A stretch of 64,000 nt of DNA from an uncultured Gemmatimonadaceae bacterium (GTDB lineage: Bacteria; Gemmatimonadota; Gemmatimonadetes; Gemmatimonadales; Gemmatimonadaceae), in contig CAWAGQ010000007.1 in NCBI GenBank assembly GCA_963781585.1, positions 192,001 to 256,000 on the forward strand. Direction: 5' to 3'. The position numbers were made by a program, and so were the translations under genes. Position 1 is the first letter of the stretch. Every line of letters begins with the position of its first letter. Positions 19,144 through 20,670 of the stretch are shown piece after piece. The notes beneath the pieces were generated by a model, which was not told where the DNA came from, did not search any database, and saw only the letters and a program-made list of their open reading frames with translations.

Positions 19144-19313
19144 CCCTGCGGGTCGACCGCGGAGAACACAGCGACCGCAGAGGGACCTATTCGCGCGCCA
19201 GCGCGCGGCGAGCAGTGTCAGGGCCGGCGCGTCCGAGCCAAGGAGCGGTGAGACTCTGCGTCCTCCGCGTTCTCTGCGGTGAACTGTTTACCGCAGAGTA
19301 GCTGTGTTAAAAG

Positions 19314-20249
19314 TCAAGGAACAATTGCGACGGGCGGACGCCACGCCGCTTGCGTTTTCACCATGGCATTGAGGGTCGTGAGGAGCCGACGCATACACGC
19401 CGTCAGGGCGACCTTCACCGGCTTGCCCGCCGCGCGGAGCTGGCGATACCACGGCCGCAGCACGGGATTGCAGCGACTGGCCGTGAGCGCAGCCATGTAC
19501 AGCACGGCCCGCACGTGCCGGCGTCCGCCCCAACAGCGGCGGCGCCCGCGCAGCGTGCCGGAATCGCAGGCGAGCGGGGCCACGCCCACCAAGGCCGCAA
19601 TCTCGCGACGCGTTAGGCGCCCCAGCTCGGGGAGGGCGGCGATGAGCAACCGCGCCGTCTGCGGCCCCACGCCCGGCACACTGCGCAAGAGCGCCTCCTC
19701 CGCCCGCCACACGGGACTCTCCCGGATCCAGCGATCGACGTCAGCGTCCGTCGCCGCCAACGCCTTCTCCAGCGTGCGCAGGACCTGCCGGACACTGGCG
19801 CGCACCTCGGGCCGCGCCACGGCGAGCCGGTTCTGTTCCGCGCCGAGCATCTCGAGGAGCTGGCGGCGGCGCTCCAGGAGCGCCGCCAGCGCCTGCGTGG
19901 CGTCGTCTGGAATCGGTCGGGGCGTGGGGCGCACCATGGCGGCGAAGCGGGCGAGCACGGCGGCATCCAGGCGATCCGTCTTGGCGAGCTGCCCCGTGCT
20001 GCGCGCGAACTCGCGCACCTGGCGCGGGTTCACCACCGCGACCGGGATCCCCGCCGTCACGAGCGCCGTGGTCACGCCCCGATGGTAGACACTGGTGGCT
20101 TCGAGCACGACCAGCGCGGCCTCCACGGTCCGGAGGTGCGTGATGAGGCGCGCCCAGCCGGCGGGGTCATTGGGCACTTGCTGCGTCGCCCCCGCATGCA
20201 CGGCGACGTCGAGGGTCGCCTTACTGACATCAATCCCCACGTAGGACAT
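19314..20249 (-). CDS. IS110 recombinase/transposase (DEDD RuvC-like plus Tnp domain)
   Basis: [34 protein letters not shown] catalytic Ser; GGAG upstream of ATG 20249. Confidence 0.95.
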
Positions 20250-20269
20250 CTGTGGCACTCCGCGTTGGG

Positions 20270-20425
20270 ATCGCGCGCGCCCTGCCTTGCAAGATGCGGG
20301 TTCTCGTCGACCCAGGTAGCTGTTCGGGCTTCGAGCGATCGGTGGGGCGGCGCTCCTACTCTGCGACGGGCTCTGTACGCCCCGGCCACGATGATCGAGC
20401 TGCCGCCGTCCCGAACCAACACTCT
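20270..20425 (-). ncRNA. Putative IS110 bridge RNA in the left non-coding end (boundaries approximate)
   Basis: Contains ACAGCTAC (20316-20323) identical to the donor end, TGCAAG (20286-20291) complementary to CTTGTA with one wobble, and CGCAGAG (20359-20365) complementary to the target flank, each within stem-loops. Confidence 0.75.
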
Positions 20426-20670
20426 TCAATGAAGACATACAAGGACACAGAGATCGCAGAGATCCTGCCTGGCGCGCCAGCGTTGGCGAGCCGTGCCAGG
20501 GTCCGGCGCGTGCGAGCCCCGACCGATGAGATTCTGAGTCCTCTGCGGTTGCAATGCTCTTACCGCAGAGGATACAGAGATCGAAGAGATGCCGCTCATC
20601 GCACCCTCTTGCCTGGGGCGATCGTTGTCACCATGTATATCGACTGAGCATGGCGACCCGGGGAGTGCAG

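Follow-up and report, generated by a model that had tools for sequence, protein, structure and literature searches.

Results

An IS110-group element and its copies in the genome

The window, by which we mean the whole 64,000-nt stretch of DNA analysed, carries on its minus strand a 1147-bp unit (19297-20443) that is an IS110-group element with CT at both ends. Read along that strand, the unit starts CT-TGTATG and finishes ACAGCTA-CT. A non-coding left end of 194 nt, counted with the core, precedes the recombinase gene, and the right end extends 16 nt beyond the stop codon, core included. The ends, the gene and the two halves of a putative promoter are located as follows.

19297..20443, minus strand: whole IS110-group element, 1147 bp including the CT core at each end; three identical copies with differing flanks
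20442..20443, minus strand: left CT core dinucleotide, read from the sequence
19297..19298, minus strand: right CT core dinucleotide, read from the sequence and by comparison of the copies
19299..19305, minus strand: left donor ACAGCTA, the right-end terminus, read from the sequence
19314..20249, minus strand: ORF of the recombinase (311 aa), identified by Pfam domains and an IS621 match; GGAG precedes its ATG by 8 nt
19312..19317, minus strand: -35-like TTGACT in the right end, overlapping the TGA stop
20434..20439, minus strand: -10-like TATGTC in the left end; the promoter would be complete only in the circle junction

Three full copies of the element, 100% identical over exactly positions 1-1147, occur in the host genome (17 contigs, 5.7 Mb, 67% GC), together with one derivative that has suffered an internal deletion. 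Their positions on contigs C7 and C11 are given below, followed by their flanks on the recombinase strand.

C7:211297-212443: full copy (the window copy), 100% identity over 1147 bp
C11:174941-176087: full copy, 100% identity over 1147 bp
C11:433051-434197: full copy, 100% identity over 1147 bp
C11:113270-113673: internal-deletion derivative, element 1-149 (89% identity) joined to 886-1147 (95% identity)

ttcgcgac-CT..CT-ctgtggt: full copy
ctctgcggc-CT..CT-ctgcggt: full copy
ctctgtgtc-CT..CT-ctgcggt: full copy
ctccgtgac-CT..CT-ctgcgct: deletion derivative

Because the flanks of the three identical copies diverge directly outside the 1147-bp unit, the boundaries of the element are fixed. The only sequence common to both junctions in all four insertions is CT, and we therefore take CT to be the core. 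All four sites read C-CT-CTGYG, a combination of a short core dinucleotide and sequence-specific insertion that is found in the IS110 group. These findings agree with an earlier note on this DNA, made from the sequence alone, which had seen CT (AG on the complementary strand) at the two ends, confirmed here at 20443-20442 and 19298-19297, had predicted the circle junction ACAGCTA-CT-TGTAT, which we read as ACAGCTA-CT-TGTATG, and had named a target that the window site indeed reads as TCTGTGTC-CT-CTGCGGT. The note had also proposed mapping the other genomic copies, and these have the same ends and lie at related sites, namely C-CT-CTGYG within arrays of CTCYGYG heptamers. Among public reads, no RNA run containing the element was listed, and neither a circle junction nor an empty site was spanned in the short soil-metagenome contigs and two runs from the same study.

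The 311-aa recombinase contains the domains PF01548 (DEDD_Tnp_IS110, 8.5e-27) and PF02371 (Transposase_20, 2.8e-17), and its matches among solved structures include ISCro4 (E 1.3e-35) and IS621 (8wt6, E 9.3e-35). Alignment to IS621 pairs all four DEDD acidic residues (D7/D11, E50/E60, D92/D102 and D95/D105) and the catalytic serine, S230-G231 falling on S241-G242. The IS621 residues D11, E60, D102, D105 and S241-G242 were shown to be essential by Hiraizumi et al. (PMC11208158). An alternative start at 20438, which would give an in-frame 374-aa ORF running through the left end, was rejected: relatives begin at the position equivalent to MSYVGID, and 20249 was therefore taken as the start of the ORF.

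Joining the right end to the left in a circle would separate TTGACT from TATGTC by 17 nt, an arrangement that had been proposed before and that we find present. The -10 consensus is TATAAT, and TATGTC agrees with it at 3/6 positions by our own count, which makes it a weak match. When junctions were reconstructed for relatives, the interval between TTGAYN and the left-end TAT came to exactly 17 nt in 31/33 distinct cases; TTGA belonged to the pattern by which junctions were sought, so that only the spacing is informative here. The hexamer TATGTC itself recurs in 5/33 distinct junctions of relatives. Reconstitution of a promoter on excision is described for IS110 by Durrant et al. 2024 (PMC11208160).

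The left end is predicted to encode a two-loop RNA

We examined the left non-coding end as a candidate bridge RNA, with the following predicted structures.

20250..20441, minus strand: left non-coding end, predicted bridge RNA, from the covariance-model match and a constrained fold
20423..20435, minus strand: 5' hairpin UCUUC-AUU-GAAGA, present in both folds; relatives have a hairpin at the equivalent position
20346..20407, minus strand: predicted target-binding stem-loop, with basal stem GGCGGC(A)GCUC/GAGCGCCGCC, internal loop and distal stem GGGC/GCCC
20269..20340, minus strand: predicted donor-binding stem-loop, with lower stem GAUCGC/GCGAUC, upper stem GCCC/GGGC, internal loop and distal stem GGGU/ACCC

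A search of Rfam 15 (E-value mode, 18800-21000) returned chance-level matches only and matched no bridge-RNA family, the best of them, to sX15 on the other strand, scoring 22 bits (gathering score 55). The unconstrained minimum free energy (MFE) fold of the 194-nt left end was no better than those of shuffles (z -0.18) and paired part of the guide to the left target. Since neither was informative, we tested the structure comparatively. Scanning one genome per species yielded 79 relative loci at 44-61% identity, in Gemmatimonadaceae, Binataceae, Dehalococcoidia, Deinococcus and other MAGs, and most of their left ends start CTTGTAT and align well.

A covariance model with four helices was built from 44 distinct left-end cores, a set from which the window element was excluded, as were L007 and L008, the relatives nearest to it. 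The model matches the window at 20269-20410 on the minus strand with 76.2 bits (E 1.3e-14). The remaining full copies give the same match, the deletion derivative scores 37.4 bits, and 76 matches were obtained across 81 sources. Over 53 distinct rows, 94.7% of cells are paired and 21/25 pairs show compensatory changes, in an alignment that was fitted to the model and so favours it. None of 500 shuffles gave pairing support as high, and slid controls reached 40-49%. An earlier plain MAFFT/RNAalifold run had found compensatory change in 17/22 pairs; its fold was set aside, as register shifts caused it to miss the distal stem of the target loop, and the two pairs it proposed between the donor guides were dropped from the model.

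The basal stem of the target loop, claimed in the earlier note as GGCGGC-A-GCUC / GAGCGCCGCC, proved real: it is formed by 20407-20397 with 20355-20346, and among relatives 12/13 of its pairs show compensatory change, with 96% of cells paired. A compensatory change also occurs within the genome, the distal donor stem GGGU/ACCC having become GGGC/GCCC in the deletion derivative. When the four guides are kept unpaired, the window RNA folds into the 5' hairpin followed by target and donor stem-loops with internal loops (-65.0 kcal/mol). The note had suggested that 20250-20441 be folded and scored with covariance models, and the outcome is an architecture of two internal loops that the model recovers at E 1.3e-14 without having seen this element. 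The guide segments sit in loop columns of the model, and the constrained fold agrees in placing them in internal loops. A 5' stem-loop is likewise described for bridge RNAs by Durrant 2024 (PMC11208160).

The insertion sites are arrays of degenerate heptamers

The element interrupts a repeat of which the two parts adjoin its ends.

20444..20462, minus strand: left target heptamers CTCTGCGAT CTCTGTGTC, adjoining the element, read from the sequence
19254..19296, minus strand: right target CTGCGGT, followed by a loop of 9 nt and the opposing arm of three inverted heptamers ACCGCAGAG AACGCGGAG GACGCAGAG, read from the sequence

Excision would restore a repeat arm, as had been claimed: CTCTGCGAT CTCTGTGTC CT-CTGCGGT (CTCTGCGGT) faces ACCGCAGAG AACGCGGAG GACGCAGAG across the 9-nt loop. 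The further claim of a chromosomal palindromic repeat holds for the window site, where alone among the copies a perfect hairpin is seen. The repeat family to which the element was said to be directed proved small: the heptamer arrays recur at about 10 loci, and are not a high-copy repetitive extragenic palindrome (REP). The recurrent unit is a 9-nt-periodic array, CTCYGYGNN x3, with 15 matches at ~10 loci as against 0 in each of 10 mononucleotide shuffles. One more cluster of matches, at C6:294431, carries a different motif. Searches for a larger family were negative. CTCTGCGG and related words are not over-represented, with few CTGCGG..CCGCAG hairpins belonging to the repeat, and BLAST of the reconstructed empty sites returned local matches plus 2-3 distant partial ones.

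Of the ~10 array loci, 4 are occupied by the element or its derivative, and insertion has always taken place between CT and CTGYG of a heptamer that is preceded by another heptamer. Elsewhere in the genome there are 28 guide-compatible empty sites (wobble allowed, 5+2+5). As these are unoccupied, base pairing alone does not explain the restriction to repeats; possible reasons are selection against genic insertions, or recognition of the array as a second layer.

Guide segments and their pairing with target and donor

Four guides, two to the target (left, LTG, and right, RTG) and two to the donor (LDG and RDG), can be read in the loops, along with two candidate handshake guides.

20384..20391, minus strand: LTG UCGUGGCC, 5' side of the target loop; runs in the sense of the left target and the first core base
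20359..20365, minus strand: RTG CGCAGAG, on the 3' side of the target loop; complement of CT+CTGCG, 7/7
20357..20358, minus strand: candidate target-loop handshake guide UA, directly 3' of the RTG; complementary to the donor TA before the core (ACAGC-TA-CT)
20316..20323, minus strand: LDG ACAGCUAC, 8/8 identical to the right-end terminus ACAGCTA + C
20286..20291, minus strand: RDG UGCAAG, pairing with CT+TGTA (CTTGTA), 6/6 with one G-T wobble
20284..20285, minus strand: candidate donor-loop handshake guide GC, directly 3' of the RDG; complementary to the GC specified by the LTG

All four guide readings in the earlier note were confirmed at these positions. The LTG (20391-20384) is 5/8 identical to CTGTGTC+C, the RTG (20365-20359) is the exact complement of CT+CTGCG, the LDG (20323-20316) is identical to the donor left end together with the first core base, and UGCAAG (20291-20286) pairs with CTTGTA through a single G-T wobble. 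The LTG is the weakest of the four, with 5/8 Watson-Crick matches to the window site by hand count; allowing G-U/G-T wobble, it reaches 8/8, 7/8, 6/8 and 8/8 over the four sites. The RTG is an exact complement at 3/4 insertion sites and needs a single G-T wobble at the fourth. At guide positions that face a variable Y of the heptamers, the window bridge RNA has G or U. At the second core base, where the guides face A, the LTG has G and the LDG has C, so that neither pairs with it. In the polarity of pairing, and in taking in the core, the guides conform to the description by Durrant et al. 2024 (PMC11208160).

The concept of handshake guides and their expected positions come from PMC11208158. 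For the target-loop candidate, relatives with ..TG-CT or ..CG-CT donors have C in place of U at the first handshake position. For the donor-loop candidate, the bases 5' of the core at the four actual sites are GC, AC, TC and AC, where the LTG specifies GC.

Guides covary with their own targets and donors

Related DNA was found in 24/200 other genomes of the same family, or 22/198 without G133 and G007, two genomes flagged as unpublished whose loci were left out of the analysis, and the nearest relatives have 67-74% nucleotide identity. To compare guides with flanks across relatives, we read the loops off the columns of the model alignment, placed the left flank by the conserved CTTGTA with which left ends start, and located the right end by a TTGA..CAGNNNCT pattern. 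Each distinct guide pair contributed one site, and the counts omit four loci with ambiguous or disrupted ends (L011:324, L076, L058 and L032) as well as loci without a detectable left or right end.

The right-target 5-mer, from which the core is excluded, is perfectly complementary to the 3' loop in 22/28 own pairs as against 5/738 cross pairs. The left-target 7-mer has a mean score of 5.26 with the 5' loop in own pairs, compared with 3.68 in 1448 cross pairs. For right and left target alike, 0/5000 permutations reached the observed mean. Within genomes of the host family, four variants of the RTG occur, each with its own right junction.

RTG CGCAGAG: own right junction CT-CTGCG, 7/7
RTG CACAGAG: own right junction CT-CTGTG, 7/7
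RTG CGCGGAG: own right junction CT-CCGCG, 7/7
RTG CACGGAG: own right junction CT-CCGTG, 7/7

As each variant matches its own junction at 7/7, the guides change precisely where the heptamer is degenerate, at its two Y positions. The LTGs of the nearest relatives also match their own left flanks (for example AGCGCUC/AGCGCT-C and GUGAACC/GTGAAC-C). On the donor side the LDG tracks the donor (CUA/CTA, UCG/TCG, UUG/TTG and GAUUG/GATTG), and the GCAAG of the RDG is near-invariant among the 44 relatives. The guides covary with both targets and donors; covariation with targets was among the conditions that the earlier note had set for its interpretation.

Discussion

We conclude, with a probability of roughly 90%, that the element is an intact IS110-group insertion sequence working as a natural bridge-RNA-guided recombinase. 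This was the reading of the earlier note, and it is supported by the identical ends of the copies, their related sites, the position of the guides in loops and the covariation. We observe the anatomy of the element, its copies, the catalytic residues, covariation of the RNA structure, and covariation of guides with targets and with donors; so far as they can be tested in silico, all the features that define an IS110-group bridge recombinase are present.

Transcription, circle formation and catalysis we infer, and the cycle would run as follows. The element would leave the chromosome as a circle, whose junction of right end and left end would leave 17 nt between TTGACT and TATGTC and so create a weak sigma-70-type promoter for transcription of the left end. 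The resulting RNA of ~160 nt would fold into the 5' hairpin and two stem-loops with internal loops. Its first loop would read the chromosomal target and its second would read the circle junction, through ACAGCUAC and UGCAAG. The 311-aa DEDD/Ser recombinase, bound to this RNA, would then swap strands at the CT core. The programmed target would be the beginning of a CTCYGYG heptamer with another heptamer before it at a spacing of 9 nt, and sites of this kind are found in a small family of palindromic arrays.

One way of dispensing with a bridge RNA altogether is to suppose that the guide matches are coincidental, the left end being only a structured 5' untranslated region and the protein recognising the repeat directly. 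The modest LTG match at the window site (5/8) and the GC-richness of the heptamer motif in a genome of 67% GC would both fit such an account. However, the guides covary with their flanks in dozens of independent relatives, down to single-base switches at the two degenerate heptamer positions, and the RNA structure covaries too, so we regard coincidence as highly improbable. It is also conceivable that the element is structurally intact but now silent, its copies being the remains of a past burst, with transposition blocked by a weak junction promoter or by host factors. The -10-like TATGTC is a poor match, and one copy, with a left end now 89% identical, has already been reduced to a deletion derivative. 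Against this, the three full copies do not differ at any of their 1147 bp, the reading frame is uninterrupted and retains every catalytic residue, and the TATGTC hexamer is shared with 5/33 distinct junctions of relatives. We therefore consider present silence unlikely; the element has the look of one that was active recently.

A further proposal adds to the bridge-recombinase reading instead of replacing it. Target choice may have two layers, in which pairing by the bridge RNA is combined with a gate formed by the palindromic heptamer array, either as a stem-loop or cruciform or through a bound protein. Such a structural gate, if real, would explain why 4 of ~10 arrays are occupied and the 28 other compatible sites are empty; 4/4 insertions lie in heptamer arrays. 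A target stem-loop is reported to act as a second determinant for one IS110 (preprint, bioRxiv 10.64898/2026.03.19.712850). However, copies A and B have no perfect hairpin beside the insertion point, the empty compatible sites may be genic, with insertions there selected against, and four insertions are too few for statistics; we regard the idea as a possible refinement, though less likely than not.

Within the bridge-recombinase reading, we can also speculate on how the lineage as a whole may have evolved. It may have co-adapted to degenerate heptamer palindromes (CTCYGYGNN x3) across the host family, with one RNA addressing several variants by wobble, sister elements hard-switched to single variants (CACAGAG, CGCGGAG and CACGGAG), and the palindrome serving as a second gate. 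As a complete picture we find this doubtful.

The element makes a natural bridge-RNA system readable in full, and does so in a soil lineage that has been little studied; the nearest of its named relatives are in Gemmatimonadaceae. A literature search for IS110 with 'Gemmatimonad', aimed at the host group and not at the heptamer repeat, found no such element by title or abstract. The system combines a compact recombinase (311 aa) and a 7-nt RTG with a series of sisters whose single-base guide changes track variants of the target repeat. This series provides ready natural controls for the rules of reprogramming, the tolerance of wobble and the part that target structure plays. The element leaves the present view of IS110 elements unchanged.

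Comparison with known systems

The best-described counterpart is IS621 of E. coli (PMC11208160, PMC11208158, PDB 8wt6). The two elements share both Pfam domains, the aligned D/E/D/D/S-G residues, the CT core, and a long left end with a very short right end (PMC11208160). In both, a 5' hairpin is followed by the target loop and then the donor loop, and bottom-strand pairing falls to the 5' sides of the loops, top-strand pairing to the 3' sides. Both also insert into a palindromic intergenic repeat, and the putative promoter of the window element would, as in IS621, be split over the circle junction. The proteins are nevertheless only distantly matched (E 9e-35 over 298 residues), and the RTG of the window element covers the core plus 5 bases, compared with 4 bp in wild-type IS621 (PMC11208160). 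Unlike IS621, the window element has an LTG and an LDG that pair with the first core base only, and its donor and target sequences differ. Its target is a low-copy heptamer array, whereas that of IS621 is the abundant E. coli REP. The best match among solved structures is the ISCro4 transposase (PDB 9t56, E 1.3e-35), which has the same domain order and which we name from the PDB entry alone.

The restriction to a repeat is paralleled by ISPpu10 and ISPpu9 of Pseudomonas putida, reported (bioRxiv 10.64898/2026.03.19.712850; PMC12288879) as IS110s confined to copies of a single intergenic palindromic sequence. For ISPpu10, the former reports a stem-loop encoded by the target as a second determinant of specificity (bioRxiv 10.64898/2026.03.19.712850). 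The window element differs from these in host phylum and in target sequence.

The RNA of IS1111-group elements goes by the name of seekRNA. These elements have a recombinase of the same family as the window element and follow the same RNA-guided logic (PMC11208160; PMC13604230). However, they carry their RNA in a long right end and have subterminal inverted repeats of 7-17 bp (PMC11208160). The window element instead has a left end of 194 nt and just 16 nt after the stop, and no subterminal inverted repeats were noticed in it.

A target programme of its own is to be expected of every IS110. Bridge RNAs were predicted in 85.7% of IS110s by Durrant et al. 2024 (PMC11208160), and the element is therefore an ordinary further example of a known mechanism and not a new one.

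Insertion site and repeat family

In the intergenic DNA around the IS110-group element (window 19150-20600), a unit of roughly 130 bp is repeated in tandem about three times, with divergence between the repeats; each unit combines a heptamer hairpin with a GC-rich tail (...ggctcg.acgcgccgg.ccctg.cac.gctcgcc...gctggcgcgc...). When compared with one another by BLAST, the units are 75-77% identical. The flanking ORFs are:

Window 18757-19143, +: 128-aa member of the PD-(D/E)XK nuclease superfamily (PF13366, 1e-38)
Window 20554-21900, +: 448-aa protein, weakly matching the DUF5128 beta-propeller

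Within the same genome (G000; C numbers denote its contigs, C7 carrying the window copy), there is a small family of intergenic elements that each hold three CTCYGYG heptamers at a spacing of 9 nt. This triple-heptamer pattern gave 15 matches in G000 versus 0 in 10 shuffles, and a frequent arrangement of the arrays is as inverted arms enclosing a short loop. Arrays were located at:

Window 19150-20600: array at the site of the element
C5:46117: array
C7:13558 and C7:307229/307294: arrays
C8:68500: array
C11:113206, C11:196551, C11:174897 and C11:433004: arrays
C12:10535/10580: array

A different repeat, of five consecutive CCCTGYGTN nonamers, occupies C6:294431-294480.

Variants of the left end

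The same genome carries a deletion derivative of the element:

C11:113270-113673: deletion derivative (locus L004)

The derivative retains the target loop of the predicted bridge RNA and the right end, but it has lost the donor loop's 3' half and the greater part of the ORF. Its left target guide reads UAGUGUCC, compared with UCGUGGCC in the element, a variant that would be a perfect match for GTGTC-C sites, the window's own target among them.

A longer reading frame, opened by an in-frame ATG where the element's left end begins, spans the entire predicted bridge-RNA region:

Window 19314-20438, -: 374-aa ORF

Because its 63-aa N-terminal extension is rich in Arg and Ser and has no counterpart in relatives, we consider that the extension is probably not translated.

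Relatives in other genomes

Two related loci each contain a pair of bridge-RNA matches (L034, 232-377 and 1466-1611; L011, 114-253 minus and 324-462 plus), which suggests tandem, nested or head-to-head copies. At L066 (954-1163), extra sequence breaks up the donor loop and the match scores only 46 bits.

Elsewhere in the host family, too, the CTCYGYG motif borders related IS copies in other genomes (L007-L010, L087, L089, L091, L110 and L112). Related IS110 elements are found, moreover, outside this phylum, in Dehalococcoidia MAGs (L048-L052, L056, L061, L062 and L070-L074), where the insertion sites are likewise short-period tandem repeats (...AATCCNNNN AATCC...). The target there is AAATC-CT-GCTTC or GATTC, and the guides of these relatives fit it (AAUCCU / GAAGCAG or GAAUCAG).
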